The position numbers and the translations under genes are program-made. A DNA stretch of 64,000 nt from an uncultured Clostridia bacterium (GTDB taxonomy: Bacteria; Bacillota; Clostridia; TANB77; CAG-508): contig CALYAG010000003.1 in the NCBI GenBank assembly GCA_944393465.1, positions 40,404 through 104,403 of the forward strand. Direction: 5' to 3'. Below, piece after piece: positions 1,441 through 60,494 of the stretch. The notes beneath the pieces were generated by a model, which saw only the letters and a list, made by a program, of their open reading frames with translations, was not told the origin of the DNA and searched no databases. Every line of letters begins with the position of its first letter. The first letter of the stretch is position 1.

Positions 1441-1544
1441 TTTTCAGTTGGGGACGGTCCTAAATCGAAAAAATTTTATTTTTTTTGAAGTTCGTCCCTA
1501 CTTTGAAAAATTTTTTCGATTTAGGACCGTCCCCAACTGAAAAT
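1441..1544. repeat. Palindromic dispersed repeat element (family 1): two inverted arms TTTTCAGTTGGGGACGGTCCTAAATCGAAAAA around a ~35-nt loop
   Basis: Arm 1441-1472 and its reverse complement at ~1510-1543. The same arms recur at 10 or more other loci in this window. Confidence 0.85.
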
Positions 1545-1546
1545 GT

Positions 1547-2572
1547 CTACAATATTAGCATTGCATCGCCAAAACTAAAGAATCTATATTTTTCTTTTAC
1601 AGCCTCTTTGTATGCTTTCATTATATAATCTTTTCCAGCTAAAGCTGAAACAAGCATTAGTAAAGTTGATTCAGGTAGATGGAAATTTGTAATTAATCCA
1701 TCTATACATTTAAATTTATATCCTGGATAAATATAAATTCCAGTATCTCCTTCACATGCTTTAACTAAACCTGTTTTTTCATCTGCTACAGTTTCTAGAG
1801 TTCTACAAGAGGTTGTGCCGACTGAAATAACTCTTTTTCCAGATTTTTTTGTTTCATTTATTTTATCTGCATCTTCCTGTTTTATATAATAATGCTCTGT
1901 ATGCATGTGGTGGTCTTCAATATTTTTCTCTTTTACTGGTCTAAATGTTCCTATTCCAACATGTAGAGTTACATTTGCTATTTTTACACCCTTTTCCTCT
2001 ATCTTTTTTAATAATTCTGGTGTAAAATGCAAACCAGCTGTAGGAGCTGCTGCTGAACCTTCATATTTTGCATAAACAGTTTGATATCTATCATTATCTT
2101 TTAAACTCTCGTGAATATATGGTGGAAGTGGCATAAGTCCTATTTGGTCAAGTATTTCATTAAATATTCCGTCATAGGTAAATTTAACTTTTCTTGTTCC
2201 ATCTGGTAAAGTTTCAAGTATTTCTGCTTTTAAAAGTCCATCACCAAATATAACTTTTGCTCCTACATGAAGCTTATTACCTGGTCTTACCATAGCCTCC
2301 CAAATATCACCTTCAATATTTTTAAGAAGTACAAATTCTACATTTGCTCCAGTTTCTTTTTTACCATAAAGTCTTGCTGGTATAACTTTTGTATTATTTC
2401 TTACTAAGCAATCACCTGGTTCTAAATAATCAATTATATCTTTAAAAATTTTATGCTCTATTGTTTGATTTTTTCTATTAAGCACCATTAATCTTGATTC
2501 ATCTCTATTTTTTATTGGTACTTGTGCTATTAGTTCTTCTGGTAGATCATAATAAAATTCTTTAAGTTCCAT
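1547..2572 (-). CDS. queA: S-adenosylmethionine:tRNA ribosyltransferase-isomerase
   Basis: 341 aa. N-terminus [31 protein letters not shown] is the canonical QueA start. Forms a queA-tgt operon. Confidence 0.9.
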
Positions 2573-2654
2573 TAAAAAGCCTTCTTTCTATTTTCTCTTT
2601 TAGCTGTTTTTGGGAGGTATTTTTCAAAACATCCCAAAAACAACTATCCAAGTC

Positions 2655-5458: not shown

Positions 5459-5628
5459 TTTTTCAGTTGGGGACGGTCCTAAATCGAAAAAATGTCGATT
5501 GGGACGGTTCTGTCAATTGGGACGGTTCTATTTGACACAAACCCAAACGTGATTTTTTTACGAAAAGGTCCGTCACTAACAGAAAATTTTTTCGATTTAG
5601 GACCGTCCCCAACTGAAAAAATTTTCGA
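5459..5628. repeat. Palindromic dispersed repeat element (family 1 arms with internal family-2-like GGGACGGTTCT sub-repeats)
   Basis: Arm at 5461-5493, its inverted partner at ~5588-5625, and internal tandem gggacggttctgtcaattgggacggttctatttgaca. It lies between the T-box terminator and the ileS start codon. Confidence 0.85.
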
Positions 5629-5629: not shown

Positions 5630-5940
5630 CCAAAAAAGACCCCATCCTTTTAGGACGAAGTCTTTCCGCGGTACCACCTAATTTAAAAGAATTTATATTA
5701 TTTCTTATTCTTTTCTCTCTAATATCTTTAACGCAGATTTACGGCTTAAACTAATAACAACCGCTTTCGTCTAAGCAACATATAAGTGATAATAAATAAA
5801 TAGTTTCTTACTAGCATCTCACCACCACTAGCTCTCTAAAAAGGCTTGTTTATTTACCGTGTCTTATATATAGTTTTTATATATGATATGACTATTTTAC
5901 AACGTTTTATGTAAAAAAGTCAAGGTTTTTCTGTAAATCT
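5630..5940 (-). promoter_or_regulatory. T-box riboswitch leader (tRNA-Ile responsive) controlling ileS
   Basis: The minus strand reads AAATTAGGTGGTACCGCGGAAAG (coords 5666-5684), the conserved T-box antiterminator motif. An AGAGAG / AGUGG stem-I-like segment lies upstream, a candidate TTGACT-N18-TAAAAT promoter near 5925-5895, and a terminator-like hairpin plus U-run at ~5630-5660. Confidence 0.75.
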
Positions 5941-6572: not shown

Positions 6573-7877
6573 TTATTTATCTTCATACCCTGGTTTTTTC
6601 AATAATTTAAACATATTTGTTTTATATTTTTCTACACCTGGTTGATTAAATGGATTTACTTCTAAAAGCTCTGCTGACATAGCACATGCTTTTTCAAAGA
6701 AATATATAAGTTGTCCTACTGTTTCCTCATTAAGTTCATCTATATGAACAATTATGTTTGGCACTTCGCCTTCTGAATGTGCTTTTATTGTTCCTTGCAT
6801 TGCCATTTTGTTTACATAGCTCAATTTTTTGCCATACAAATAATTCAAATTATCTAAGTTGTCTTCATCCATATTTATGGTAATATCCGTGTTTGATTTT
6901 TCAATATCTAAAACTGTTTCAAATAATATTTTTCTTCCTTCTTGTATATATTGTCCTAATGAATGTAAGTCAGTTGTAAATTCTGCTCCTGCTGGAAATA
7001 GTCCTTTTCCATCCTTTCCTTCACTTTCACCAAATAGTTGCTTCCACCACTCTATAAAATAATGCATTCTTGGATTATATGAAACTAGCATTTCTACTGA
7101 TTTATCTCTTTCATATAATAAATTTCTTGCAACTGCATATTGATAGCATTGATTATATTCAAGTGAACTATCTGAATATTTATCCATTGCAAATCTAGCA
7201 CCTTCCATGATTTTATCTATGTCTAATCCACTTGCTGCAATTGGTAAAAGACCTACTGCTGTAAGAACTGAGAATCTTCCTCCTACATCATCTGGTATTA
7301 CAAAACTTTCATAGCCTTCAGCTTCTGATAATTGTTTTAATGCTCCCTTTTTCTTATCAGTTGTTACATATATTCTTTTTCTAGCTTCTTTGATTCCATA
7401 TTTTCCTTCTAGAATTTCTCTAAAAATTCTAAAAGCAATAGCTGGTTCTGTGGTAGTTCCTGATTTAGATATTACATTAATACTAAAGTCTTTTCCTTCT
7501 AGTACTTCTATAACATCATTTATGTAATCTGGGCTTAGGTTATTTCCAACAAATATAATATGTGGTTTATCATCTTTCATTTGTGAAAATGAACTATGTA
7601 ATGCTTCAATAACAGCCCTAGCTCCTAAGTATGAGCCACCAATTCCTATAACTAATAAAATATCTGAATCTTTTCTAATTTTTTGAGCACATTTTTTAAT
7701 TCTTTCAAACTCTTTTTTATCATATTCAGTTGGTAGTTTAAGCCAACCTAAAAATTCGCTTTCATCTTCAGATTTGTCTAGTAGTTCTTGATTTATTTCT
7801 TCTACAACACCTGCATGTTCTAATATTTCTTCCATTTTAACTTTTGATTCTTTAAAATCCAATTTAATATTTGCCAT
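6573..7877 (-). CDS. pgi: Glucose-6-phosphate isomerase
   Basis: 434 aa Firmicute-type PGI with GIGGSYLG and the SKSGTT.E conserved motifs. Confidence 0.9.
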
Positions 7878-7962
7878 TAGATTCCTCCTTTGATTTTTTA
7901 ATTATTTTATTATACTTTAAAATTAGTTGCAAGAGTTTTTTGAATTTTTTCAGTTTGTATTT

Positions 7963-8066
7963 TTTCAGTTGGGGACGGTCCTAAATCGAAAAAGATTTCA
8001 TGTAGTAACGAACTTTAAATAAAAATTATATTTTTTTCGATTTAGGACCGTCCCCAACTGAAAAAA
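7963..8066. repeat. Palindromic dispersed repeat element (family 1)
   Basis: Inverted arms at 7963-7994 and 8033-8066 around a 38-nt loop. Lies between the pgi start and the spoIIP stop. Confidence 0.85.
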
Positions 8067-9359
8067 TTACATCTCTTCAAGTATTCTTGCCAAATACTTC
8101 ATTGCTCCCATACTTTCTTCTAAGGTATTACCAGTTGAGCCAACTTCTATTATGCAGGCTGCTTTTGCAACATGCTGGTTGTATTCTGAGTTTCTTAATA
8201 TTATTGGCTTGAAAAGCCCTGGGTATAATTCATTTGCTTTTTGCTGAACTTTTATTGCAAATTTTAAGTTTTGTAGCCAATTTGTATGTGCTGAGTTTGA
8301 GCCATCGGTTCCCATTACAAACATAAGTTGTGATACATATTCATCACCTATTTTTACTTTTGGAGCATATGTTTCATCTGCTATAGCATCTCTATGTAAG
8401 TCTATAACAATGTCTGTATCAGGGTTTGCACTAAGTATGTTTTGGGCAGTCACAAGTGACCTAGAATATGAGCCGTTGTATGCAGGGTAATCATGGTATG
8501 TTTTATCATGTATGACCGTACAGCCATAACTATTTAAGCAACTTTCTAACACATCGCCTACTCTTGATACAGAAAAATTCAAATCTGTTGTTCTGAAATT
8601 TCCACTTGCCGTGTATTGGTATTGTTCTGTAGGTGTGTAGCTTTCGCAAGTATGTGTGTGATAAATTGCAACTTTGCTTTTGTTTACTTCTACATCTGGT
8701 GTAAGCATTTCTTGAGTTAAAGTGTATTTTGTACTGTTATTAATAAGCACTCCATTATATTCATCTGTATATCTAGGATTTACTCCACTATTATCTACTT
8801 CTGTTACTGTCCAGTCTTTGTTTATGCCTATAGATTGCAATACATCACCATTTTGTGTAGTTAAACCTGAATTTTCTCCATTTGCTGAATTCCCAGCATT
8901 TGATGAAATTTCTTGCCCACCTTCACCTTGACCATTATTTTCATTGTTGCTTGTTTCATTAGATGTTTCATTTGAACTATCTTTTATAGAGTCTAAAACT
9001 TCAAGTTCTGACGAGAAAGCAATTTGCACACTACTAACTTTTGTAGCTTGATCCGTTTGTTTATTTATTGCAATTTGTGGTAACATATCATCTATGCAAA
9101 ATAGCCATGCTTGCGATTTTTTTTCATTTTTCTCGCCATTTATTTCTCCGCCTTCTTCATTATTATTTTCCTCATTGGACTGTGTAACTGTTTTTTCATC
9201 GGTACTATTGCTTAATTCTGCATTTGAATTAACATCAGCACTAGATTTATTCTTTTCTCCAATCTTTAAAAATTTTACAACTAAAGCTACAGCCGTTAGC
9301 ACTATCAAAATCTTTATTAAATATTTAATTAAATCTTTTACTTTGAATACTTTTATCAT
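8067..9359 (-). CDS. spoIIP: Stage II sporulation protein P (SpoIIP-family cell-wall amidase/endopeptidase)
   Basis: 430 aa with an N-terminal TM helix and an N/S/E-rich low-complexity linker. The C-terminal domain carries the AIYHTHT.ESY...DLHRDA motifs characteristic of SpoIIP. Confidence 0.7.
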   Translation of the reverse strand: MIKVFKVKDLIKYLIKILIVLTAVALVVKFLKIGEKNKSSADVNSNAELSNSTDEKTVTQSNEENNNEEGGEINGEKNEKKSQAWLFCIDDMLPQIAINKQTDQATKVSSVQIAFSSELEVLDSIKDSSNETSNETSNNENNGQGEGGQEISSNAGNSANGENSGLTTQNGDVLQSIGINKDWTVTEVDNSGVNPRYTDEYNGVLINNSTKYTLTQEMLTPDVEVNKSKVAIYHTHTCESYTPTEQYQYTASGNFRTTDLNFSVSRVGDVLESCLNSYGCTVIHDKTYHDYPAYNGSYSRSLVTAQNILSANPDTDIVIDLHRDAIADETYAPKVKIGDEYVSQLMFVMGTDGSNSAHTNWLQNLKFAIKVQQKANELYPGLFKPIILRNSEYNQHVAKAACIIEVGSTGNTLEESMGAMKYLARILEEM

Positions 9360-12532: not shown

Positions 12533-13825
12533 TTGAAAGCGAAAAAAATATTAGTATTTATGCTTATAGTTGTTTTAATATTAATAACATTATTCGGAAT
12601 GAATTCTGTAACATCTATGGATAATTTAGCATATGTAGTCGCAGTTGGTTTCGATATTAAAGATACTGGAAAATTAGAGCTTAGCTTTCAGATTGCCCTT
12701 CCATCTGGAAGTGAAGGCGGTTCTTCTGGTTCAAGCTCATCCCAATCTTCTAGCTCTATTGTGACTAGTGTTGAATGTAACTCCTTTGAATCTGGAGTTA
12801 ACTTAGTTAATTCATATTTAAGTAAAGAATTAAATTTATCACATTGCAAAGCAGTAGTATTTTCAGAAGAAATAGCATCACAAGGAATTGGAGAATATTT
12901 ATACACTTTAATTAACCATGTTGAAATAAGACCAACTTGTAATGTAATAATTTCAAAATGCAATGCAAAATATTTTTTGAACAATTCAAGTCCTATGCTA
13001 GAACAACTATCTTCAAAATATTACGAAATTGCTTCTACATCTGAAAGGGTTACTGGATATACTTATAATATAACTTTACTAGACTTTTTCTCAGATTTTG
13101 CTGATTCTTTTACTGAATGTTTTGCTACACTTGGAAGTGTTAATGATGGCGGTATTAGCAGTAGTGGTTCGAATAACAATTCTAGCAATAGTTCCAGTAA
13201 CGGAAGTAATAGTGACCAATCTAGCTCAAGTTTATCAAGTGAAGGTACAGATGATAGTTATGTTGCCTCTGAAACACCTATAGATTCTCAAAAGAATATT
13301 GAAAACTTAGGCTTAGCCGTTTTTAAAGGTGACAAATTAGTTGGTGAGCTAAATGGTGTGGAATGTATCGCTCACTTAATATTAACTAATGAACTAGAAA
13401 ATGCTGTAATTAGTGTTCCTAGTCCCTTTGAAAGCACAAATTATATTGATTTATATCTTACAAATAGCAAATGTAAGTCTAAAGTATATTTGACAAATGG
13501 TACACCATATATAAAACCTAGTATTGATTTAAGTGCACGAATAATTAGTATGTCTGATGATTATAAAGATTTAACTGAAGAAAATATTGAACTTATTGAA
13601 GAATATGCAAAATATTATGTAGAAAGATTTATTTATGATTATTTATATAAAACAGCTAAAGTATTTAAGTCGGATATTACAGCCTTTGGTAAATATGCTG
13701 TTTCAAATTTTGCAACTATTGATGAATGGAATAAATACAACTGGCTAGATAATTACCAAAATTCTTTCTTTAATGTGGATATAAATGTGGATATTGTTTC
13801 TAGATACTTGTTGATTGATACTTGA
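12533..13825 (+). CDS. Spore germination receptor C subunit (GerAC/GerKC lipoprotein) with Ser/Gly/Asn-rich low-complexity inserts
   Basis: 430 aa with a TTG start behind AAAGGAGG, a signal peptide/TM, and the conserved GerxC C-terminal region. Two Ser-rich inserts are present (SGSEGGSSGSSSSQSSSS and GGISSSGSNNNSSNSSSNGSNSDQSSSS). Confidence 0.8.
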   Translation: MKAKKILVFMLIVVLILITLFGMNSVTSMDNLAYVVAVGFDIKDTGKLELSFQIALPSGSEGGSSGSSSSQSSSSIVTSVECNSFESGVNLVNSYLSKELNLSHCKAVVFSEEIASQGIGEYLYTLINHVEIRPTCNVIISKCNAKYFLNNSSPMLEQLSSKYYEIASTSERVTGYTYNITLLDFFSDFADSFTECFATLGSVNDGGISSSGSNNNSSNSSSNGSNSDQSSSSLSSEGTDDSYVASETPIDSQKNIENLGLAVFKGDKLVGELNGVECIAHLILTNELENAVISVPSPFESTNYIDLYLTNSKCKSKVYLTNGTPYIKPSIDLSARIISMSDDYKDLTEENIELIEEYAKYYVERFIYDYLYKTAKVFKSDITAFGKYAVSNFATIDEWNKYNWLDNYQNSFFNVDINVDIVSRYLLIDT

Positions 13826-13964
13826 TTTTTTTCAGTTGGGGACGGTCCTAAATCGAAAATTTTCAGTTGGGGACGGTCCTAAATCGAAAAAATATTATTT
13901 TTGTTTAAATTTCGTTTCTGCTTAAAAATTTTTTTCGATTTAGGACCGTCCCCAACTGAAAATT
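13826..13964. repeat. Palindromic dispersed repeat element (family 1; two direct arms plus one inverted arm)
   Basis: Arms at 13829-13860 and 13861-13893, and an inverted arm at 13931-13964, between the convergent gerKC-like and rnr genes. Confidence 0.85.
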
Positions 13965-15953
13965 TTACACTAATTTAAAATCAATTTTTCTCGTTTGCTT
14001 ATCTGCAAATACAACTTCAATTTTTACTTTTTGTCCAAGTTTGTATACTTTTTTAGTTTCTTTGCCAATTAGTTGTTTATTTAAATCATCATAAATGTAA
14101 TAATCATCATTTATTTCTGCAAGTCTAATTAGCCCTTCTACTGTGTTATCTAATTGTACAAACATTCCCCAACTTGTTATACTTGAAATAATACCATCAT
14201 ATTGTTCGCCAATTTTATCTTGCATATATTCAGCCTTTTTAATATCTTCACTTGCTCTTTCTGCTTTTGTAGCAATTTGCTCACATTCTGAAGAACTTTC
14301 AGCGTATTTTATTGCTTGCTTTTCTAGTTTTGCCTTTGTGTTTTCATCAATTATATCATTTACTGCCTTATTACGCTTAACATTTTTGCCTTTATTCGAT
14401 TCTGTACTCATATACTCTAAGTATTTTGATATAACCCTATGTATAAATAAATCAGGATATCTACGAATTGGTGATGTAAAATGGCAATAATATTTACTTG
14501 AAATACCAAAGTGTCCTTTATTTTCCGCTTCGTACCTTGCAACTTTTAAGGTTCTTAAAAGTAAGTTAGAAACTACCCTTTCTTCATCTTTTCCTTTTAC
14601 ATCTTCTAATATTTGTGAAAATGCTTTTGGTTTTACATCGTCCAATTTTCCTTTTATTCTATATCCAAAATTAAACAAATATTTATTTAATTCTTTTACT
14701 TTATCTTCGTCTGGCTTTTCATGAACTCTATAAATAAAAGGTGCTTCTAGCCAATAAAATCTCTCTGCGACTGTTTCATTTGCTGTTAGCATAAATTGCT
14801 CAATTATTTCATGTGCGAAGTTCGTTTCATAAGGACTTATATCTATTGGCTTGCCATTTTTATCTAAAGTAATTTTGCTTTCTGGTATGTCTAAAGATAA
14901 ATATCCATCTTTTAGTCTTCTTGCTTTTAAAATCAAAGCTAGTTCTTTCATTCTATCAAAATGGGCTATATATGGCTCATATTTTTCTAAAACTTTTTCA
15001 TCGCTTCTTTCAATTATTTTGTATACATCATTGTAATTCATTCTTTTAGTTACTTTAATAATGCTTTTAAAAATATTGCTATCTACAACTTTTCCTTTTG
15101 AATCTATAGTCATTATAACTGAAATAGCATATCTATCTTTGCCTTGATTTAAGCTACAACATCCATTTGACAATTCAGTTGGAAGCATTGGAATAACTCT
15201 ATCTAGCATATACACACTTGTGCCTCTTTTTATTGCCTCTTTATTAAGCAAACTTCCGTCTTGCACATAGTAACTTACATCTGCAATATGTACTCCAAGT
15301 GTATATGTACCATCTTCATTTTTATCTACACAAACTGCATCATCTAGGTCTTTTGCATCTTCTCCATCAATAGTAAAAATTTCTTTATCTCTTAAGTCTA
15401 CTCTTCCTTCTGGCTTTATTTCCTTTTTGCTAACTCTTTTTGCCTCTTCTAAAACTTTTTTAGGAAATTCGCTTTCTAAATTATACTCTTTAATGATTGA
15501 AAGCATGTCCACACCCGTTTCATCTTCATAACCTAAAACTTCAGTAATTTTACCTTCTGCTTTCATTCCTTTTCTAGGATATTTTGTAATTTTTACTACA
15601 ACTTTTTGATGATTTTTGGCTTTTCCAAAATTAGATTTTGATATAAAAATATCTGTTCCAAGAGCGTTGTCATCTGGTATTACAAAACCAAAATTTCTAC
15701 TTTTTTCAAAAGTTCCAACTACTTGTTTTGTGTTTCTTTCTACGACTTGAACAATGGCACCTTCTTTACTGTTGCCACTATTTTCATCTATTATTTTTAC
15801 TTCAACTATGTCACCATTCATAGCATCTTTTTTATTCTTTTTGGCTATGAAAATGTCTGGCTCATCATCCGATATTTTTACAAAGCCGTAGCCACGTTCA
15901 TGGCCAATATATTTTCCTTGTATAAGCTCCATTTGTTTCCTTTCTTTTTTCAA
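13965..15953 (-). CDS. rnr: Ribonuclease R
   Basis: 662 aa with an N-terminal cold-shock/OB region (GYGFV), an RNB catalytic domain and a C-terminal S1 domain. Classic secG-rnr neighbourhood. Confidence 0.9.
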   Translation of the reverse strand: MKKERKQMELIQGKYIGHERGYGFVKISDDEPDIFIAKKNKKDAMNGDIVEVKIIDENSGNSKEGAIVQVVERNTKQVVGTFEKSRNFGFVIPDDNALGTDIFISKSNFGKAKNHQKVVVKITKYPRKGMKAEGKITEVLGYEDETGVDMLSIIKEYNLESEFPKKVLEEAKRVSKKEIKPEGRVDLRDKEIFTIDGEDAKDLDDAVCVDKNEDGTYTLGVHIADVSYYVQDGSLLNKEAIKRGTSVYMLDRVIPMLPTELSNGCCSLNQGKDRYAISVIMTIDSKGKVVDSNIFKSIIKVTKRMNYNDVYKIIERSDEKVLEKYEPYIAHFDRMKELALILKARRLKDGYLSLDIPESKITLDKNGKPIDISPYETNFAHEIIEQFMLTANETVAERFYWLEAPFIYRVHEKPDEDKVKELNKYLFNFGYRIKGKLDDVKPKAFSQILEDVKGKDEERVVSNLLLRTLKVARYEAENKGHFGISSKYYCHFTSPIRRYPDLFIHRVISKYLEYMSTESNKGKNVKRNKAVNDIIDENTKAKLEKQAIKYAESSSECEQIATKAERASEDIKKAEYMQDKIGEQYDGIISSITSWGMFVQLDNTVEGLIRLAEINDDYYIYDDLNKQLIGKETKKVYKLGQKVKIEVVFADKQTRKIDFKLV

Positions 15954-19304: not shown

Positions 19305-21614
19305 TTACAAATTCTCCAATTTATACTTTAGTCCTGAGTTTCTTTGTTTTATTTTCTCATTGTTTATCATAAACTGGATAGTATAAGGATTTCCAATCAT
19401 TATCAACTTATCTTTTGCTCTTGTCATTCCTGTATATAGCAAGTTTCTTGTAAGTAGCATTGGTGCTGCTTGATAAATAGGTATTATTACAGTTTGGAAT
19501 TCACTTCCTTGAGATTTATGTACTGTTATTGCAAATGAATGCTCTATTTGGTCTAAGTCTTGATAACCGTAAAATGCAACTTTGTCATCATCAAATCTAA
19601 TTTTTACTTCACCTGCTTCATCATCTATTTTTTCTATTACTCCCATTTCTCCATTGAAGATTCCACTATTTATCTCACTTTTTCTTCTCCACATTATGTC
19701 GTAATTATTTTTGGTCTGCATTATTTTGTCGCCTTCTCTATATATTACTTCTCCAAACTTTTTTTCTTGTTTTACGGCACTCGCTGGATTAAATTTTTCT
19801 TGTATTAATTTATTTAAGTTTTTTGTTCCTAAATCTCCTTTTTTAGATGGTGTTATTATTTGTTCATCTAAGTTGTATAATTCTAGTATTTTGTTTATTA
19901 TTTGTGGAGTTGATTTTTCTTGAATAAAGAAGAAATCGTTTCTAGTGCCCGTTTGACTAGATGATTTTGTTTCTCCTTGTTTTTTTGATTGATTTATTTG
20001 TGAAAAATCTTTATCTGCTTCACCATTTTGCGAATTTGCTGTATCATTTTGAAAAACCATTGTCCCATTTTGCGAATCTTCTAAGAAGTTTATTCCCTCA
20101 TTTACTTTGTGAGAATTTACAATTATTTCGCTTTGGAGAGCTTGTCTAAAGATCTTGTTAAGCCTTACACATGGAACTCTTTTAGAATCTATTAAATCTT
20201 TTAAAACTGTTCCCGGTCCAACTGATGGAAGCTGGTCAGTATCTCCAACTAGCACAAGCTTTGTCCCTTTAAATAATGCTTTTACAACATAATTCATTAA
20301 GAATAAATCTACCATTGACATTTCATCTATTATAACTACATCTGCGTCAATTGGTGTTACATCCAAGTCTGGGTCAGGCTTTTCGTCTGATACTTTTCCT
20401 ATTTCTAGCAGTCTATGAAGTGTACTTGCCTCTTCTCCAGTTGCCTCAGTCATTCTTTTAGCTGCTCTACCTGTTGGAGCACAAAGCACAACCTTTTTGC
20501 CTCTTGATTTGTATATATCTATAATTGTTTTTATTATAGTTGTTTTACCAGTACCAGGTCCACCAGTTATAATACATACATTATTATCATTGACCATTTT
20601 TACCGCTTCTACTTGTTTTTCAGATAATTCAAGTGAAGTAGCTTTTTCAGTTTTTTCTAGCTCTTTATTAAAGTTTGGTATTCTTTTTATATTGTCTGCT
20701 TGTTCTAAGCTTAAAACTCTCTCAGCAATATTTAACTCTGTTTTGTAATAGTCCATTAAATATATCCAAGTTTGTATACATAACTCTGTTTTGCCATTTG
20801 TGGTAGCTATTTCTTCTCTTTCTTCTATTTTAATTTGTTCTTTTGCTCTTAAATCTTTTATTCCATCTAACACATCATCTTCCGAAACTCTTAAAAGTTT
20901 AGTTACAAATGCAATTAAATTTGCCTCTAACACACAGCTATGACCATTGTATGTAGCTAAATTAAGCCCATGACGTATTCCTGCATCAACTCTTTTTAAA
21001 TTATTTCTTTCAACACCTAAGTCCAAAGCCATTTTGTCTATCTGTGAAAAATCCACTTTTACACCAAGCTCACTTAAAACATAGGGGTCATTTTCAACTA
21101 TTGATATTGTATTAGCTCCCAACTTTTTGTAAATTGTATTAGCACTTTGAGGACCTATTCCAAACTTTTCTAAGAAACCAACAATTTGCCATAGCTCCCA
21201 ATTGGCAACAAAACTTTCATTAATTTCTTCTGCTTTTTTCTTTGTAATGCCTTTAATCTCTGTAAGTCTATCTGGATCAGCTTTTAAAACATCAACAGTT
21301 TCTGCTCCAAATTTTTTTATAATTTTTTTGGCTGTTGCAGGACCAACACCTTTTATAATACCATTTGATAAATATTTTTCCAAAGCATCTAAAGTTTCTG
21401 GCATGATTTTTTCAAAAGTTTCAACCTTAAATTGGTCTCCATAATCTGGATGAGTAACAAATTTTCCAATGATTTTAAGGCTATCACCTTTTTGCACAAA
21501 AGGTAAATAGCCTACTATAGTTGTCTCAGCTGACTCCATATCAAAGCCAGCAATTGTATATCCGTTTGTTTCATTTTTATATATTATATCTTGTACTGTT
21601 CCTTTTAGCTCCAT
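19305..21614 (-). CDS. recD2: ATP-dependent RecD-like DNA helicase (RecD2)
   Basis: N-terminal SSB-like/HhH domains, Walker A GGPGTGKTT, and a C-terminal SH3-like domain. The track ORF (to 21752) reads through the repeat element. The start is placed at the ATG at 21614 (MELKGTVQDI...), which is the first Met after the repeat-derived peptide. Confidence 0.9.
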   Translation of the reverse strand: MELKGTVQDIIYKNETNGYTIAGFDMESAETTIVGYLPFVQKGDSLKIIGKFVTHPDYGDQFKVETFEKIMPETLDALEKYLSNGIIKGVGPATAKKIIKKFGAETVDVLKADPDRLTEIKGITKKKAEEINESFVANWELWQIVGFLEKFGIGPQSANTIYKKLGANTISIVENDPYVLSELGVKVDFSQIDKMALDLGVERNNLKRVDAGIRHGLNLATYNGHSCVLEANLIAFVTKLLRVSEDDVLDGIKDLRAKEQIKIEEREEIATTNGKTELCIQTWIYLMDYYKTELNIAERVLSLEQADNIKRIPNFNKELEKTEKATSLELSEKQVEAVKMVNDNNVCIITGGPGTGKTTIIKTIIDIYKSRGKKVVLCAPTGRAAKRMTEATGEEASTLHRLLEIGKVSDEKPDPDLDVTPIDADVVIIDEMSMVDLFLMNYVVKALFKGTKLVLVGDTDQLPSVGPGTVLKDLIDSKRVPCVRLNKIFRQALQSEIIVNSHKVNEGINFLEDSQNGTMVFQNDTANSQNGEADKDFSQINQSKKQGETKSSSQTGTRNDFFFIQEKSTPQIINKILELYNLDEQIITPSKKGDLGTKNLNKLIQEKFNPASAVKQEKKFGEVIYREGDKIMQTKNNYDIMWRRKSEINSGIFNGEMGVIEKIDDEAGEVKIRFDDDKVAFYGYQDLDQIEHSFAITVHKSQGSEFQTVIIPIYQAAPMLLTRNLLYTGMTRAKDKLIMIGNPYTIQFMINNEKIKQRNSGLKYKLENL

Positions 21615-21626
21615 TTTATCCTTTCT

Positions 21627-21768
21627 TTTTTCAGTTGGGGACGGTCCTTTTCCGAAAATTTTTTTCAATCGGGGACGGTCCTTTTCCGAAATTTTTTTCA
21701 ATCGGGGACGGCCCTTTTCCGAAAATTTTTTTCGTTTTAGGACCGTCCCCAACTGAAAAAAACTGAAT
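21627..21768. repeat. Palindromic dispersed repeat element (family 1; three degenerate direct arms plus an inverted arm)
   Basis: TTTTCAGTTGGGGACGGTCCTTTTCCGAAA appears three times (21629-21720) and the inverted arm at 21733-21766. It sits in the recD2 5' leader. Confidence 0.85.
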
Positions 21769-33086: not shown

Positions 33087-33120
33087 TTTTTCAGTTGGGG
33101 ACGGTCCTAAATCGAAAAAG
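33087..33120. repeat. Solo (half) copy of the family-1 palindromic repeat arm
   Basis: TTTTCAGTTGGGGACGGTCCTAAATCGAAAAAG with no inverted partner within 700 bp. It directly abuts the GC-rich orphan gene cassette at 33180-33725. Confidence 0.8.
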
Positions 33121-33292
33121 TCAGGTATACCGTTATAAAATACCCGCAATTTCAAAGTCAAAATTTGATTACCAACACTTTATCAAAATTTTGAAAACTA
33201 CTTGACTTAATTTTATTAAAAGTATAATATTTAGTTAAGTTATTTTTCCTCGAAGAGTATTTTTACTCTTCTACAAAGCAAAGGAGAAAATT

Positions 33293-33640
33293 ATGGACGC
33301 TTATTTTTCGAGAGACAACATTCGTATCTGGCGTGATTCGAAAAATAATTCTTTGAATTTTATGTTCATGGAAGACGAAAAAAATTGCGTCAAACAACCT
33401 CATATCTTTTCTAAGCAGGATGTGCTTAACTTTATGATGCCGTACATTTATGAGCTTGCCTATTTTGAGGCTTATGGTGAGCCTTATATTGTCCAAGAAT
33501 ATCAAAAAGCAATTAACTTTAAAGATTCTCTTGAAGATTGGCTTAACTCATGCATTGCCTATGGAATCATGACGCTTACCGAAGCTAGTCTTGTTCTTAG
33601 TGAGCTTTATCTACCCAACGAAAAATTTTCTCCAATCTAA
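33293..33640 (+). CDS. Orphan small hypothetical protein (115 aa) in a GC-rich island with its own promoter and terminator
   Basis: ATG behind AAAGGAGAAAATT. The sequence MDAYFSRDNIRIWRDS... has no recognisable family. Local GC is ~40% vs ~28% in flanks. Candidate promoter TTGACT(33202)-N16-TATAAT(33224-33229). Two hairpins follow downstream. Confidence 0.55.
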   Translation: MDAYFSRDNIRIWRDSKNNSLNFMFMEDEKNCVKQPHIFSKQDVLNFMMPYIYELAYFEAYGEPYIVQEYQKAINFKDSLEDWLNSCIAYGIMTLTEASLVLSELYLPNEKFSPI

Positions 33641-33685
33641 TCTACCTTTGTAGATTAGAATTCTACCTATATTATTTAAAAGCAG

Positions 33686-33722
33686 CAAATCGGTATCTCT
33701 TTCGAGGTACCGATTCGCTTTT
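33686..33722 (+). terminator. Intrinsic terminator after the orphan gene
   Basis: GCAAATCGGTATCTCTTTCGAGGTACCGATTCGC followed by TTTTTAC. A second perfect hairpin, AATCTAATCTACCTTTGTAGATTAGAATT, lies at 33634-33662. Confidence 0.6.
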
Positions 33723-33784
33723 TACTATTTGACTTTTTTGTTAAATAATAATTTATTCAAAAAGTTTTGTTTTAATATTTTAAA

Positions 33785-35356: not shown

Positions 35357-35370
35357 AATATTCTCCTCCT

Positions 35371-35588
35371 TTTTTTCAGTTGGGGACGGTCCTAAATCGA
35401 AAATTTTCATTTAAGGTCCGTCCCTGATTGAACTATATTTTCATTATAGCACATCAATCCTACAAAATCTACATTTTGGGAAATTTTTTTCAGTTGGGGA
35501 CGGTCCTAAATCGAAAAAATCTGTCAATATAGTTGTCCCGTTTAACACAATTTATTTTTTCGATTTAGGACCGTCCCCAACTGAAAAA
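35371..35588. repeat. Palindromic dispersed repeat element (family 1, composite: two direct arms, a degenerate arm and an inverted arm)
   Basis: Arms at 35373-35404 and 35487-35519, the inverted arm at 35556-35588, and a degenerate AGGTCCGTCCCTGATTG. It lies in the metG 5' leader / ABC permease 3' end. Confidence 0.85.
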
Positions 35589-45189: not shown

Positions 45190-45255
45190 TTTTTCAGTTG
45201 GGGACGGTCCTTTTTCGAAAATTTTCGTTTTAGGACCGTCCCCAAACGTAAAAAT
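45190..45255. repeat. Palindromic dispersed repeat element (family 1, compact form with a ~10-nt loop)
   Basis: TTTTTTCAGTTGGGGACGGTCCTTTTTCGAAAATTTTCGTTTTAGGACCGTCCCCAAACGTAAAAA, just upstream of the tig start. Confidence 0.85.
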
Positions 45256-45257: not shown

Positions 45258-46547
45258 TTATTTCTTAGATATTTTTGCGCTTTTAACTATTAAATCTATT
45301 GCTTGTTCTGTTTTTGAACTTTCTGCTAAGTAATTCTTTAAGTCTTCGTTCTTTTCTAAGTCTTCTACTTTTCTGTTATATTGCTTAGCCATTTCTTCTA
45401 TTTTGTCTTTTATGTATTTTTCGTCTTCTTTTATTTTTTCATCTTTAACAATTTGATCTAAAACTAATCTTGTTTTAACATTTTTTTCTGCTTGCTCTTT
45501 GTAGTCTTTTCTAAAGTCTGCTTCTGATTTACCCATCATTTTTAGGTATTGATCTAAGTTTAGTCCTTGATAACTTAGTCTTTGGTCTAAGTTTTGCATA
45601 ATGTTGTCTATTTCTAAGTCAATCATTCCTGCTGGAATGTCTATGTTTGTATTTTTGCAAACTTCTTCTATAGCAGCATCTTCTGTTTCATGTTTTGCTC
45701 TTTCTTCATTTTCTTTTTGTTTCTTTTCTTTGATGCTGTCTTTTAATTCTTTTAATGTGTCAAATTCACTAACATCTTTAGCAAATTCATCATCTATTGT
45801 AGGTAATTGTTTTTCTTTTATTGCATGTAATACAACATGGAATGTAGCTTCTTTACCAGCTAGGTCTTTTGAGAAGTAATCTTTTGGGAATGTAACTTTT
45901 ATGTCTTTTTCTTCTCCTATTTTCATACCAATTATTTGGTCTTCAAATCCTGGGATAAATGTTTTGCTACCAATTGTTAAGTCATGATTTTCAGCCTTGC
46001 CACCTTCAAATGGTTTGCCATCTGTAAATCCTTCAAAGTCTATTGTAACTATATCTTGGTCTTTAACTGGTCTATCTTCAACTGTAACTATTCTTGAGTT
46101 GTGTTCAGCCATGTGATTTATTTCATGGTCTACATCTTCGTCAGTCACTTTGTATTCGATTTTCTTTAATGGAATTTCTTTATATTTGCCAAGTTTAACT
46201 TCTGGTTTTGTTGCAACTATAGCTGTGAATATAAGGTCTTTACCTTTTTCCATTTGAACTACATCTATTTGTGGTCTACTTGCAACTTCTATTTTATTTT
46301 CTTTTATTTCTTCATCATATACAACAGGTGCTAATTCGTTGAATGCATCCTCATAAAATATTGAATCTCCATAATATCTTTCTACTATTTTGAAAGGTGC
46401 TTTTCCTTTTCTAAATCCTGGTATATTGAAGTATTTTGCACTTTTTTTGAATACTTCTTGTATTGCTTCTTCAAATCTTGAAGCTGGTACTGTAAATGTT
46501 AGTTTTAATTCATTATTATTTTCTGTTTTTTCTTGTTTTAAGCTCAT
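45258..46547 (-). CDS. tig: Trigger factor
   Basis: 429 aa with an N-terminal ribosome-binding domain (GFRKGKAP), an FKBP-type PPIase middle domain and a C-terminal helical arm domain. Confidence 0.9.
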   Translation of the reverse strand: MSLKQEKTENNNELKLTFTVPASRFEEAIQEVFKKSAKYFNIPGFRKGKAPFKIVERYYGDSIFYEDAFNELAPVVYDEEIKENKIEVASRPQIDVVQMEKGKDLIFTAIVATKPEVKLGKYKEIPLKKIEYKVTDEDVDHEINHMAEHNSRIVTVEDRPVKDQDIVTIDFEGFTDGKPFEGGKAENHDLTIGSKTFIPGFEDQIIGMKIGEEKDIKVTFPKDYFSKDLAGKEATFHVVLHAIKEKQLPTIDDEFAKDVSEFDTLKELKDSIKEKKQKENEERAKHETEDAAIEEVCKNTNIDIPAGMIDLEIDNIMQNLDQRLSYQGLNLDQYLKMMGKSEADFRKDYKEQAEKNVKTRLVLDQIVKDEKIKEDEKYIKDKIEEMAKQYNRKVEDLEKNEDLKNYLAESSKTEQAIDLIVKSAKISKK

Positions 46548-46741: not shown

Positions 46742-47635
46742 TTAGTTATCAAGCAATTTTTTTAATTCTTCTTGTGTTATATTTAATATTTGACAAATTT
46801 GCTCATTTGTCATTTTTAGTTCTTTCATTCTTTTAGCATTTTCTTTTCGTTCTTCTGCTCTACCAGCTACTTTCCCAGCTTCAACTCCAGCCTTTTGTCC
46901 ATCCTCATATCCTTTACGTCTTATTGCCTTTTCATCCATTATAGCTTTTTCTCTTAGGTCTGCCATCCTTCTCATATGTTCATCTTCGGTCATCTCATGT
47001 ACTGTTATTACAGCTTCTTCTATATCTTTATTATCTTTCATAATTTCCTTGACCTCCTCTGTATTTGGGTCGTTTATGAATAATGCCCATTGTGCTTTTT
47101 TGTTTTTCTTGTTTCTTTCATATTCGGCCTTTACCTTGGATAACTCAATTATATCTATTTCTATTTTATCTGTCAAGACGAGGTTTTGATCAATTTCTTC
47201 TCTTAATTTCCACTTTGTTTCCATTCTTTCTATTTCTTTTGTTAAGTCTAAATTGTAGTCTAAAATTGCTATTATTACAACTCTTTTAGCCTCTATGTAA
47301 TCTTCACCTTTTTTAACCTCATTTGAATATAATTTTGAAAAATAATAAAGTAATCTTTCTTGTATATTTGACCTATCTACTAATTGAATTTCTACATCTA
47401 CTTTTTCATTTTTGTTAATATCTAATTCCAAATCTAATATGCCTAGCTTGTCCTCTGGTTTTTCTCTAAAAAGTTCTTTGTCATTGTTTATTTTTATACT
47501 TTTAACTTTTTCATCTAACAACGCTTCTGCAAATGCTTTTGTTATTTTTACGTTCTTTTTACTGAATAAACTTTCAAATACTACGTCTATCTTTGGTTTT
47601 AATAATTGTAAGTTATTTTCTTTGTTTTCATCCAT
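46742..47635 (-). CDS. Rpn-family recombination-promoting nuclease / putative transposase (PD-(D/E)XK, YhgA-like)
   Basis: 297 aa. The N-terminal D..F...F block, a central helical region, and the characteristic Firmicute Rpn C-terminal tail (...QKAGVEAGK..., then QICQILNITQEELKKLL). Confidence 0.65.
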   Translation of the reverse strand: MDENKENNLQLLKPKIDVVFESLFSKKNVKITKAFAEALLDEKVKSIKINNDKELFREKPEDKLGILDLELDINKNEKVDVEIQLVDRSNIQERLLYYFSKLYSNEVKKGEDYIEAKRVVIIAILDYNLDLTKEIERMETKWKLREEIDQNLVLTDKIEIDIIELSKVKAEYERNKKNKKAQWALFINDPNTEEVKEIMKDNKDIEEAVITVHEMTEDEHMRRMADLREKAIMDEKAIRRKGYEDGQKAGVEAGKVAGRAEERKENAKRMKELKMTNEQICQILNITQEELKKLLDN

Positions 47636-48105
47636 ATATTTTTCCTCGTATAATATATTTAAATTATAAACATATTCTTTCTTTTAAATTTTAAATATTT
47701 AATTTATTTTTCTTGCGTTAGGATTTATTTAGATATTAAATGCAATTTTTGACAGTTAAGAATTATCTAAATTAAAATTTAAAACTCGAGTTTGATTTAA
47801 GTTCTTGAAATAACTTTTTAATAATTTTATAGCTATATAAATGTATTTCCATTATATGGTATATTTTATCTTTTGTCAATGTTTAATCTATAATTTATCA
47901 TAAAAGTTTTCGACAAAATTCGACAAATGGTTGTTCTGAGAAAAATTATGAAAATAAAGAGGGCAAAACAAAATAGCAGAAAGTATAGTGATTTCTGCCA
48001 TTTTTAATTTGCATATTATTTGTTTTATATGGTACAGTGACTGTCAAACAGAACCGTCCTTATTGACATATATTTTAGTAATTATTTTTTTAAGTTTTAA
48101 AATTT

Positions 48106-54665: not shown

Positions 54666-54821
54666 TATTTATTCCTCCTAACATTTTGTCTAAATGCGTA
54701 GTTTACTTAATTTGCGTGTTTCTTATTTTAATATGCCATTCTTAATAAAGTCACCTGAACTTTTGTTCGTATATATTATACATACATTTGTTTGCTATGT
54801 CAAGAGGTTTTTAAAATTTTT

Positions 54822-54920
54822 TGTCAAATGGGACGGTTCTAAATTACACTGATTTGTGTCATTTAGAACCGTCCCATTTGAAATTTTTTCATTTTAGAAC
54901 CGTCACAAACTGAAAAAATT
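54822..54920. repeat. Palindromic dispersed repeat element, variant family 2 (GGGACGGTTCTAAAT arms)
   Basis: CAAATGGGACGGTTCTAAATT...ATTTAGAACCGTCCCATTTGA plus a third arm TTTAGAACCGTCACAAACTGAAAA. Related to family 1 but diverged. Sits between rplQ and recN. Confidence 0.75.
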
Positions 54921-54925: not shown

Positions 54926-55447
54926 TTAAACTAATTTTAAGATAACTGTTTCTGCAGCATCTCCTCTACGCTGACCTAGCTTAATTATTTGTGTATATCC
55001 ACCGTCTCGATCTGTGTATCTTGGTGCGATTACATTAAATAATTTGTCTGTTAAGTCTATTGGAGTACCTTCATTATCTTTTACTTTATTTAATTTTGTC
55101 ATCATTTTTCTTCTAGCATTTAATCTTGATGGCTTGTCTTTTTGTCTTTTTTCCATTTTTTCTTCTTTAACAACTTTTAGGAATTCTTTTCCATTTTTGC
55201 TTTTTACTAATTCAGTTTCTTTATTTCCCTTGCTGTCGCGTTTTGCTTTTACAACTTTTACTTCTACTTCATCAAAGTTGTCTTTTTCTTTAACAGCAAG
55301 TGCTATTAGGCTATCTACTATAGCTTTTACTTCTTTAGCTCTAGCTTCAGTTGTTTGAATTTGCTCATGCCAAATTAGGTCTGTTGACAAGTTTTTTAGC
55401 ATTGCTAGTCTAATGTCAGTAGTTTTTCCTAATTTTCTATTTGCCAT
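54926..55447 (-). CDS. rplQ: 50S ribosomal protein L17 with a ~60-aa Lys/Glu-rich internal insertion
   Basis: 173 aa vs ~115-125 typical. Conserved ends (MANRKLGKTTDIRLAMLKNLSTDL...TTEARAKE... and ...RYTDRDGGYTQIIKLGQRRGD) flank an insertion KEKDNFDEVEVKVVKAKRDSKGNKETELVKSKNGKEFLKVVKEEKMEKRQKDK. Confidence 0.85.
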   Translation of the reverse strand: MANRKLGKTTDIRLAMLKNLSTDLIWHEQIQTTEARAKEVKAIVDSLIALAVKEKDNFDEVEVKVVKAKRDSKGNKETELVKSKNGKEFLKVVKEEKMEKRQKDKPSRLNARRKMMTKLNKVKDNEGTPIDLTDKLFNVIAPRYTDRDGGYTQIIKLGQRRGDAAETVILKLV

Positions 55448-57670: not shown

Positions 57671-57688
57671 TATTTTTCTCCTTTCACA

Positions 57689-58713: not shown

Positions 58714-58877
58714 AATTTATTCCCCCTATAATATTTAAAACTAAAATGATAAAAATTGAATTGTGTATGAAGAGTACATTAATCAACTTTTATGGCATTT
58801 TAAAATTTACAAGTTTACATATTGGAAAAACATAAGACAGTTTTTCACAATAGCTATTATATTATATAATATTTTTA

Positions 58878-59645: not shown

Positions 59646-59650
59646 TTTAA

Positions 59651-60310
59651 TTACCTTCTTTTATTGATTCTTTTTTCAGCTTCACTTGTTGTGTCTTCCT
59701 TTGTTGTTTCTGAATATATGTTTATTGGAATAGATTCTAATAAATCTGCCTTTTTGTAATATTCAATAAGTGGCTCAGTATTTTGGTGATAAACATCTAA
59801 TCTTTGTTTAATAGTCTCAGGTTCATCATCTTTTCTCTTAATAAGAGGTGAACCACATCTATCACAAATGCCTTCTACTTTTGGAGGCATAAATACAGTA
59901 TTGTATGATGCTCCACATTCTTTGTTTGAACAAATTACTCTGCTTGATGTTCTAACAACTATGTCTTTATCTGGAACATCTAAGTTAATTACAGCTGTAA
60001 TTTTTTTGCCTTTTTCAGCTAAATATTTATCTAAAGCCTCTGCCTGTGGTATTGTTCTTGGGAAACCATCTAATAAGACATTATCCATCTCATCAAGTTT
60101 TCCCTCAACCATTGCTATTGTAATTTCATCTGGTACTAACTTTCCCTGTGACATATATTGTTCAGCTTTTTTGCCTAATTCTGTTTGTCTTTTCATTTCA
60201 TCTCTGAATATATCTCCTGTTGCTAAATGAACTAAATTATATCTATTACAAATTTCATTTCCTATTGTTCCTTTTCCGCTTCCTGGAGCGCCTAACATTA
60301 TAATATACAT
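59651..60310 (-). CDS. adk: Adenylate kinase
   Basis: 219 aa. P-loop GAPGSGKGT and a LID domain with a C..C...C..C zinc knuckle (CSNKECG...CDRCG). AAAGGAAG RBS ahead of the ATG at 60310. Confidence 0.9.
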   Translation of the reverse strand: MYIIMLGAPGSGKGTIGNEICNRYNLVHLATGDIFRDEMKRQTELGKKAEQYMSQGKLVPDEITIAMVEGKLDEMDNVLLDGFPRTIPQAEALDKYLAEKGKKITAVINLDVPDKDIVVRTSSRVICSNKECGASYNTVFMPPKVEGICDRCGSPLIKRKDDEPETIKQRLDVYHQNTEPLIEYYKKADLLESIPINIYSETTKEDTTSEAEKRINKRR

Positions 60311-60328
60311 ACTTTTCTTCCTTTCTTT

Positions 60329-60494
60329 TTCAGCTGGGGACGGTCCTAAAATGAAAATTTAATTTTTTATTTAAATCACGTCCCAAATTATAAATTTTCG
60401 TTTTAGGACCGTCCCCAACTGAAAAATTTATTTTTTATTTAAATCACGTCCCAAATTATAAATTTTCGTTTTAGGACCGTCCCCAACTGAAAAT
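60329..60494. repeat. Palindromic dispersed repeat element (family 1) tandemly duplicated at the secY-adk junction
   Basis: Two ~80-bp units in direct tandem: CAGCTGGGGACGGTCCTAAAATGAAAA...CACGTCCCAAATTATAAATTTTCGTTTTAGGACCGTCCCCAACTGAAAA. The second copy is near-identical (60409-60494). Confidence 0.85.

Follow-up and report, generated by a model that had tools for sequence, protein, structure and literature searches.

To our knowledge, systems made of repetitive extragenic palindromes (REPs), the doublets that they form (REPINs) and a REP-associated tyrosine transposase (RAYT) have been studied almost only in Proteobacteria, and the largest class of RAYTs (called Group 1, subclass 2.1 or TIRYT) has neither a clear repeat partner nor a clear function in the literature. 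Neither Firmicutes nor Clostridia are mentioned in the core REP/RAYT papers that we consulted. Here, we analyse a palindromic repeat family dispersed over 64,000 nucleotides of an uncultured Clostridia bacterium (assembly GCA_944393465.1, contig CALYAG010000003.1, positions 40,404 to 104,403 of the forward strand; this whole stretch is called the window in what follows). We think that the family is, with good probability, a REP/REPIN population of an uncultured spore-forming gut Clostridia lineage that is served by a transposase of the RAYT/TIRYT kind. Elements of this kind are already known, but not from this group of bacteria, so that the family is not a new category of element.

The REPs, bacterial interspersed mosaic elements (BIMEs) and REPIN-RAYT systems of Escherichia coli, Pseudomonas and Stenotrophomonas (PMC2817692, PMC3116915, PMC5581495, PMC6006769) share several traits with the repeats described here: an abundant extragenic imperfect palindrome of ~30 nt, doublets of inverted units able to fold into long hairpins, clusters in which unit subtypes are mixed, and a single-copy, vertically inherited Y1/HUH gene flanked by its own units (a 'REPtron'). 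Other points of likeness are, possibly, the lack of target duplication (seen here at one empty site) and, more clearly, the location at gene 3' ends and in operon interiors, and the protein fold, for which the E. coli structure 4ER8 is the closest. The differences concern the hairpin, which here has a short AT-rich stem and a conserved GGGGACG in its loop; the transposase, which here has 240-260 aa, a helical C-terminal extension and 18% identity to the E. coli RAYT; and the host, which is a low-GC spore-forming member of the Clostridia and not a proteobacterium.

The closest published category is that of the TIRtrons and their TIRYT transposases, which are RAYT-like genes flanked by inverted repeats with the motif GGGGWSAS; some of these terminal inverted repeat (TIR) families are self-complementary, occur in dimers or clusters and are 'moderately abundant' in a few genomes (Di Nocera et al. 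2013, PMC3733652). Quentin et al. 2018 equated TIRYT with subclass 2.1, which has a C-terminal helix-turn-helix (HTH) domain of the Bac_DnaA_C, HTH_23 or HTH_28 type, and with Bertels' Group 1; no REP-like repeats were reported for subclass 2.1 (PMC6006769). Group 1 RAYTs, reported in Clostridia as well, have flanking 16-mers of low frequency, the median being about 12 (Bertels et al. 2017, PMC5581495). The system described here resembles the TIRYT one in the inverted repeats with a G-rich motif around a RAYT-like gene, in the longer protein with a C-terminal extension (although the HTH matches are weak here) and in the self-complementary repeats that form dimers or clusters. When compared with the consensus GGGGWSAS, GGGGACGG matches at seven of eight positions and GGGGACGT at six. 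It differs in its density of about one cluster per 6 kb, in the REPIN-like doublets and in its strain-level turnover. Judging from the sequence, membership in subclass 2.1 / Group 1 is likely. In the CGTC-tagged REPs, which are palindromic as well and contain a CGTC, the tag lies unpaired at an end of the hairpin, and a dedicated transposase is not known (Di Nocera et al. 2013, PMC3733652). The core described here has the complement CGTCCCC, but its CGTC is internal, lies in the loop and comes with a candidate cognate Y1 gene.

The 31-nt core TTTTCAGTTGGGGACGGTCCTAAATCGAAAA is found 18 times in the window with at most three mismatches, 13 of them exact, and its chance level in 100 dinucleotide-preserving shuffles is zero. 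A search with nhmmer using a profile made from all units gives 28-29 units against none expected by chance, every one of them within 11 loci (E1 to E11 in their order along the window), and the rest of the window is empty. Thus, the abundant palindromic MITE/REP-like family of the original prediction is confirmed, and so are its eleven loci, whose coordinate ranges were correct to within about 3 nt. They also proved to be as strictly intergenic as had been claimed, since all 11 lie in intergenic gaps of a window that is 89% coding. They add up to 1251 nt, which is ~18% of the intergenic DNA of the window, and they occupy 11 of its 50 intergenic gaps.

The unit is a high-copy, extragenic, imperfect palindrome of 31-33 nt with two subtypes, A (TTTTCAGTTGGGGACGGTCCTAAATCGAAAA) and B (TGTCAAATGGGACGGTTCTAAATGACA), which have GGGACGG and the core GGGACGGTYCTAAAT in common and differ in their outer arms (TTTTC…GAAAA in A, TGTCA…TGACA in B). 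Units are seen solo, as inverted doublets, in direct tandem with a period of 31-34 nt, and nested, for example a type-B doublet within a type-A doublet. When the window is taken together with 49 loci of a related metagenome-assembled genome (MAG), 34 multi-unit clusters (23 simple pairs and 11 triples) have the '><' polarity and none has the '<>' one. The spacers between paired units fall into classes of 0-4, ~41 or 75-139 nt. Decayed units (…CGTCCC…) are found inside the common ~41-nt spacer and inside a 68-nt module of the secY-adk gap, so that essentially everything is built from units of ~31-34 nt. Folded as RNA in the sense direction of the neighbouring genes, the doublets reach -34 to -91 kcal/mol (z = -9 to -16), and the solo units are no more stable than shuffled sequence. 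As single-stranded DNA, nine of ten units from several lineages form an outer stem of 6-8 bp and a loop of 12-17 nt that opens with the G-rich motif GGGGACG.

A search of the window at the Rfam gathering threshold returned a T-box alone and no repeat family, the tRNA scan found none, and no named family turned up in a literature search by repeat sequence. Two other readings were rejected: a CRISPR array, for lack of unique spacers with a regular period, and the operators of a regulon, given that the flanking genes have unrelated functions.

The family is not a peculiarity of this region. An exact 23-mer of the repeat occurs in only four GTDB species representatives, all of them 'uncultured Clostridia bacterium' MAGs. 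Of the 49 stretches that contain it, 45 are in BRZ_EL__bin65 (bin65 below), a fragmentary MAG of the same species that is 95-99% identical to the window over the overlaps, and many are at contig ends; the other three MAGs have single matches. The window itself is 100% identical to the ENA metagenome scaffold ONAT22-1_SAMEA6814396 scaffold_266. None of 2.9 M viral contigs contains the exact arm, and the 111-nt element has no blastn match in plasmid or phage collections. The family is thus chromosomal, genome-wide and lineage-restricted. The earlier expectation of a genome-wide spread is borne out by the 45 separate stretches of bin65, and its figure of hundreds of copies per genome is, from the sequences available, a fair extrapolation.

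The non-autonomous character proposed for the repeats holds, and no homologue of the transposase described below is encoded in the window. Among the open reading frames (ORFs) lying between inverted units in the sampled loci (L numbers), the one at L026:1359-2087, in the same-species MAG, encodes a protein of 242 aa (P0001) that matches Pfam Y1_Tnp with 35.6 bits (cutoff 23). Two type-A units lie upstream of this gene and two inverted units downstream, and together they reach the stop codon of RNase J at one end and the ribosome-binding site (RBS) of gltX at the other. Since the same units flank the Y1 gene as inverted pairs, it occupies the 'loop' of a giant doublet that has the polarity of the small ones.

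An alignment of 24 homologues shows an H-x-H motif (H62 invariant, H60 in at least 90% of them), an invariant Y120-x3-N124-P125 and a Ser-Ser pair (S140-S141) that is invariant or nearly so. H-x-H, Y-x3-N-P and SS are signatures of class 2 (TnpA_REP) (PMC6006769). The sole match of the alignment profile in the PDB is E. coli TnpA_REP, 4ER8 (E = 4e-5). This structure is also the best Foldseek match (E = 4.5e-7, target TM 0.70) of an AlphaFold (AF2) model of the protein with a pLDDT of 83.7, followed by the IS608, ISDra2 and IS200 transposases. Residues 142-241 of the model are helical. Weak matches to HTH families are found among the homologues (HTH_19, HTH_23 and HTH_24 in six of the 24 each, HTH_28 in two), and P0001 itself has none.

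The Y1 gene is present once in ~370 kb of sampled DNA from the species, and an all-against-all clustering of the ORFs, in search of a multi-copy transposase in the same ~370 kb, gave ordinary paralogues only. An identical protein is encoded on short contigs from the metagenome cohorts of the window, which end in the flanking units. Homologues with 69%, 66% and 44% identity hold the same RNase J-RAYT-gltX slot, and those with 41%, 39% and 35%, the last one in the cultured Acetoanaerobium noterae, are located elsewhere. No close plasmid or phage copies of the protein were found, the only matches being distant ones (<=35% identity) in the plasmid collection. All this sequence context points to vertical inheritance of a transposase that keeps its place on the chromosome. 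Because it is single-copy, fixed in position and outside the window, the arms do not form part of a known insertion sequence (IS) with its cognate transposase nearby, which the original prediction had named as a finding that would speak against it. We also observed, across lineages, a small conserved hairpin with a G-rich loop (AAATTGA-ATAGGGGGCA-ATCAATTT) in the 5' leader of the RAYT gene (L026:1300-1358, and upstream of the RAYT start in L050 and L053), which could be an autoregulation site.

The comparison of lineages also links the repeats to the enzyme. L079-L081 show the same layout of units around the gene, and L050-L056, L076 and L077 show it with units of their own lineage; altogether, it recurs in at least seven lineages, with specific stems and a constant core. 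The homologues examined, down to 39% identity, have inverted flanking units with the core (G)GGGACG, the outer arms of which vary among lineages but stay complementary within each unit. The stems around GGGGACG are TTTTCAG…CGAAAA (the unit of the window lineage), TTTTACG…CGTAAAA, AACCAAT…ATTGGTT, CGGGATT…AATCCCG, AGACAA…TTGTCT and GGACAT…ATGTCC. The unit reads TTTTACGTTGGGGACGGTCCTTTTCGTAAAA for the 69% homologue, AACCAATGGGGACGTT…ATTTGGTT for the 44% one, in the genome of which there is a second family with the unit CGGGATTAGGGGACGGGTCTTCAATCCCG, GAGACAAGGGGACGGAGCTTTTGTCT for the 41% homologue and GGACATGGGGACGTAGATGATGTCC for the 39% one. In A. noterae, units with the core GGGACGGTT survive only upstream of the gene, immediately next to it (L082, NZ_CP154629.1, 421884-422696, a stretch that is unannotated in the record); this record is labelled as a 'plasmid' of 2.6 Mb. 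L055, L076 and L077 are low-copy lineages, in which the pair flanking the gene is nearly the sole copy in 16-20 kb, a pattern that a chance colonisation of both flanks cannot explain. Hence, as far as sequences can tell, the association of the repeats with the Y1 gene is specific and not accidental. Moreover, a conserved asymmetric motif combined with compensatory changes in the stem is what should be expected of a hairpin recognised by an HUH enzyme, a mode of recognition that we infer by analogy with the E. coli TnpA_REP and IS608 structures.

The repeats also change between relatives, near-identical strains among them. E1 (1440..1544) is a type-A inverted doublet (units 1440-1472 > and 1512-1544 <, with a 39-nt spacer that contains a decayed unit; RNA fold -59.6 kcal/mol, z -15.6) that fills the gap from the queA stop (1547-1549) to the RBS and start (1420) of tgt. 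In L005, which is 85% identical there, the site is empty and the queA stop abuts the tgt RBS (…ATATTATAG/GAGGAAAAATG, TAG/GAGG, the slash marking the junction). The window has at this junction E1 and a few A/T-rich bases with no target duplication, which answers for the single empty site found the check that had been suggested; none is visible in the flank alignments either. The contigs that carry tgt all stop short of ileS.

E7 (35372..35588) consists of a type-A unit (35372-35404 >), a decayed one (35403-35432 <), a spacer and a type-A doublet (35486-35518 > and 35556-35588 <). It extends from 1 nt past the stop of an ABC-permease gene (35590) up to the metG RBS and has an RNA fold of -91.1 kcal/mol. 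In L084, L085 and L090, the loop of this type-A doublet contains a further doublet, of type B and 67 nt long, with the junctions …AAACGGGAC/GGTTGTCAAATGGGACGG…CCCATTTGATGAC/AACTAT…, and the window, L086, L089, L091 and L092 lack it, with a seamless junction. The filled L084 and the empty L086 differ at 7 positions in 5.7 kb of flanks (~0.1%). The strain comparison proposed earlier thus does reveal a doublet that is present or absent between near-identical strains, and this difference may be either an insertion or a precise loss. Strain L088 has the same E7 arms around a different ~40-nt loop, which is the canonical loop of other loci.

Other loci vary in a similar way. E10 (54819..54917), just past the rplQ stop (54926) and upstream of recN, is formed by a type-B doublet (54819-54849 > / 54854-54883 <) and a decayed type-A unit (54885-54917 <), with an RNA fold of -46.5 kcal/mol; it had been listed as a variant copy at 54822-54920, where the repeat is indeed present, although in this other composition. 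The 26-nt centre between its type-B arms is the exact reverse complement from strain to strain, and other strains carry an extra 69-nt unit-plus-spacer. E11 (60326..60494; -64.3 kcal/mol) lies inside the ribosomal-protein operon, between secY (stop 60589) and the RBS and start (60310) of adk, and is a '><<' cluster in which a 68-nt module, made of a decayed unit and a unit, occurs twice. Strains with 97-100% identity differ in the length of the secY-adk cluster, which is 118, 185, 254 or 340 nt, in steps of the 68-nt module, and in that of the rplQ-recN cluster, which is 115, 186 or 203 nt. Besides, orthologous intergenic gaps hold different unit types according to the lineage, for example downstream of serS.

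Short tandem duplications of the '5' stem + core', with a period of 18-19 nt, were also seen in type-B units (window 5493-5511, L069:11480-11500, L050:9344-9361). They are polymorphic across strains and their breaks are at several positions just past GGGAC. A unique nick site at GGGAC/, suggested by the E7 junction, was dropped because of these several post-core breaks.

The location of the clusters with respect to genes is far from uniform. For the 73 clusters with genes on both sides, 39 of 75 neighbouring stops are within 10 nt of the outermost unit, most of them at 0-3 nt, and the median distance from the cluster to a neighbouring start codon is 82 nt. In 28 of 61 co-directional gaps, the cluster is at most 5 nt from the stop codon, against 12.8 expected under uniform placement with the last 20 nt before the start codon excluded; none of 200,000 simulations reached 28 (p < 5e-6). 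This closeness may be due either to insertion targeting or to tolerance by selection. In the window, E3 (7961..8065; -57.1 kcal/mol), a type-A doublet with a 39-nt spacer, begins 1 nt beyond the stop codon of spoIIP (8067-8069), and its other end is 83 nt upstream of the start of pgi (7877). At three loci (window 7946-7960, L007:1874-1888 and L016:1639-1653), the 5' end of the unit recurs as a partial copy (TTTTTCAGTT…) on the outer side of the left arm, at a distance of exactly 15 nt; this copy may be a remnant or a motif that resembles a target. E8 (45190..45251; -34.3 kcal/mol) is a back-to-back type-A doublet with zero spacer that is present in every strain compared. It comes just after the stop codon of tig (45258-45260), with clpP 317 nt further downstream, so that its former placement upstream of tig (45190-45255) has to be corrected: it is 3' of tig and 5' of clpP.

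Stable hairpins positioned precisely after stop codons could also suggest that the repeats are structural elements selected by the host, either RNA stabilising or processing hairpins or sites for nucleoid or regulatory proteins, that were spread by recombination, gene conversion and slippage and merely colonised the surroundings of the Y1 gene. Changes in array size, loop inversion and loop replacement are all possible without a transposase, and with ~22% of the intergenic gaps holding a cluster, finding one on both flanks of a given gene is not vanishingly rare. However, this explanation does not account for the Y1-flanking layout in at least seven lineages, each with its own stems and all with the same core, including the low-copy L055, L076 and L077. 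In addition, new sites such as queA-tgt need a transposition-like event, and the strict '><' polarity of the clusters equals that of the pairs flanking the gene. Thus, we consider it unlikely as an account of the family. Under the transposase-based explanation that we prefer, an mRNA-stabiliser or protein-binding role of the repeats is possible all the same.

It had also been proposed that the repeats act as bidirectional terminators. Long GC-cored hairpins in intergenic DNA are what intrinsic terminators or attenuators sharing one sequence would look like, and E4 (13828..13963), a '>><' cluster, takes up all of the 139 nt that separate the convergent Ger(x)C gene (stop 13823-13825) and rnr (stop 13965-13967), its + strand hairpin being followed by UUUU. 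But the outer stem ends with …CUGAAAA on the 3' side of the hairpin and usually continues into an A-rich flank with no U-tract, so that the hairpins are not intrinsic terminators, and a consensus terminator scan does not flag the repeats. Moreover, termination would be harmful at several sites. E2 (5459..5620; -78.6 kcal/mol), made of a type-A unit (5459-5491 >), a partial and a complete type-B unit (5493-5511 > and 5511-5540 >), a decayed unit and a second type-A unit (5588-5620 <), is in the leader of the essential ileS, between the 3' end of a T-box riboswitch (5648) and the ileS start (5411). This T-box (5648-5880, - strand) is the Rfam family RF00230, found with 111 bits, and E2 is inserted between its terminator and the ileS RBS. 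As E1 in queA/tgt and E11 in secY/adk are inside operons, these elements must be read through and do not terminate. We therefore think that a family of terminators is very improbable. Once transcribed, the hairpins might plausibly have other effects, by analogy with REPs. Liang, Rudd and Deutscher reportedly found in 2015 that E. coli REPs directly past a stop codon interfere with terminating ribosomes, and a hairpin right after a stop codon may plausibly do so here. It is also plausible that the cistron upstream has its 3' end protected or processed, as is listed for REPs (PMC6006769).

The first description as 'MITE/REP-like', in which MITE stands for miniature inverted-repeat transposable element, is essentially right, with the refinement that the repeats are most probably of the REP/REPIN kind, with a Y1 transposase, and not classical DDE-type MITEs. 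Correia elements (Neisseria) and RUP (Streptococcus) are DDE-type MITEs with target duplications. BOX and ERIC are, as far as we know, modular elements with no known enzyme. All four are ~100-nt intergenic repeats with inverted ends, hairpin transcripts in operons and strain variability, as here, but they have no sequence similarity to the present repeats, which have no Rfam match. That the repeats are internally deleted derivatives of a DDE-type IS, moved in trans through ~31-37 bp terminal inverted repeats, is scarcely credible in spite of several ~103-nt copies with long perfect inverted ends and a shared ~40-nt spacer (E1, E3, L011, L016, L037) that resemble Correia- or RUP-type MITEs, because there is no target-site duplication at the one empty site or visible in the flank alignments, no multi-copy transposase ORF or DDE IS in ~370 kb of sampled DNA of the species, and no arm-flanked gene other than the Y1 transposase, and because each arm is itself a hairpin unit that is also found solo, in tandem and nested, which is the behaviour of BIMEs and REPs and not of terminal inverted repeats.

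The most likely explanation is that the repeats are non-autonomous and would owe their spread and maintenance to a single tyrosine transposase (Y1, HUH) of the RAYT/TIRYT kind, encoded on the chromosome. By analogy with E. coli TnpA_REP and IS608-type enzymes, the transposase would recognise the single-stranded hairpin together with its G-rich motif, and would cut and rejoin single-stranded DNA, probably at replication forks, and would move doublets without target duplication. The tandem arrays may afterwards grow or shrink via slippage or recombination, again by analogy. Inserted doublets would be transcribed as very stable RNA hairpins after stops, in operons and in leaders.

Several observations weigh against this proposal and should be taken into account. 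The canonical 5' GT[AG]G at the foot of a GC-rich hairpin, typical of REPs, is absent. The 242-aa protein scores 77 bits against the NCBIfam model REP_Tyr_transpos (REP-associated tyrosine transposase), 3 under the curated cutoff of 80, and its gene is known from the same-species MAG (95-99% identical) and from short contigs, that is, from outside the window. As DNA, single units fold weakly (-2.4 to -6 kcal/mol, z about -1 to -3). The orientation of the units with respect to GC skew has no bias (62 against 56), where a mechanism strictly bound to the lagging strand might be expected to bias the solo units. There is one clean empty site, which comes from an 85%-identical relative, and a 3-nt GAC repeat at the junctions of the 67-nt doublet means that a hairpin or slippage deletion is equally able to explain its presence and absence.

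Of the remaining loci, E5 (21627..21760; -67.2 kcal/mol) lies between the stop of a PPIase gene (21776) and the recD2 start, and is a '>>><' cluster, in which the first three units are variants of type A (…CCTTTTCCGAAA) and the last one, which is inverted, is canonical. At this locus and at E7, the mechanically called ORFs of recD2 (19305-21752) and metG (33785-35410), both on the - strand, are N-terminally extended through the repeats and acquire the peptide …GPSPTEK…, an artefact already pointed out in the original prediction and seen for these two genes; their actual start codons are near 21614 and 35357, respectively. Next to E10, the rplQ ORF (54926-55447, - strand) has 173 aa compared with the 112-aa L17 model, which it matches in two stretches, and this points to an insertion of roughly 55 aa in ribosomal protein L17; its length is identical in all strains.

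The two solo units of the window are found beside strain-variable DNA. E6 (33087..33119, +), a type-A unit 80 nt upstream of ftsK, is the edge of a rearranged segment (33119-33785) that varies among strains. In the same-species MAG, its position holds three units and a decayed arm, followed by different genes. The segment of the window contains a 115-aa ORF (33293-33640, +) behind a promoter and a leader hairpin (CTCGAAGAGTA…TACTCTTC), and in bin65 (L042:1-1066) the same CTCGAAGAGTA…TACTCTTC leader precedes a different small ORF. In other strains, metG-spoVT replaces metG-ORF-ftsK (upstream of metG in L003, read as the reverse complement, and downstream of it in L088 and L091), which suggests a rearrangement or cassette site. 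E9 (48042..48070, -), which had been taken for a fragment (48036-48070), is instead a complete solo type-B unit (TGTCAATAAGGACGGTTCTGTTTGACA), in a strain-variable segment beside the gene of an Rpn-family nuclease. This recombination-promoting nuclease (PDDEXK_2) is in a strain-variable slot upstream of tig, at 46742-47635 (-) and 47636-48105, where other strains have a NTP_transf_2/HepT toxin-antitoxin-like pair or another ORF.

Some insertions of other kinds were observed in the ribosomal operon: a ~673-nt one between rpsH and rplF in one strain (L069:1600-2420), with two ORFs that have no Pfam matches, and an 88-nt non-REP one between rpsM and rpsK in both L068 and L069 (about 8620-8728). 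A repeated module of a third kind, ~95-110 nt long and with a long AT-rich stem (AGCCAAAGCAATATGTCTATTTT…) and a GC-rich loop (…GCAGCGACCCGCGCCGAG…), is absent from the window and often nested between type-A arms (L006:3690-3800; L010:1170-1270 and 7420-7520; L019:1480-1580; L032:1180-1290; L044:2890-3000; a variant in L046:2110-2240). It has no Rfam match, and a permissive Rfam search on three loci with this third nested palindrome gave nothing.

Besides their biological interest, the repeats have practical consequences. They break the short-read assemblies of these gut Clostridia, the RAYT contigs and many MAG contigs ending in repeats, they create the false …GPSPTEK… extensions of ORFs, and they serve as strain-typing markers. 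Thus, the family is of use in assembly, annotation and strain typing, and of interest for work on REPINs and HUH transposases. Their placement flush to stop codons in essential operons makes them candidates for post-transcriptional effects. The lineage is, moreover, a clear example for the Group 1 class, with dense repeats, a syntenic single-copy enzyme and a visible motif, and it also offers natural compensatory variation across lineages and strain-level gains and losses in public metagenomes.

In our opinion, the arguments are evenly balanced on a wider claim: that a dense population of REPINs in a Gram-positive lineage may have a TIRYT/Group-1-type RAYT as its active partner over the long term, with a new recognition code, in which a co-varying short stem and the loop motif GGGGACG take the place of 5' GTAG and a GC-rich stem, and with a niche in the first nucleotides after stop codons. 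If true, the REPIN-RAYT 'symbiosis' would not be a proteobacterial speciality, and the large, functionally orphan Group 1 class would have a job.

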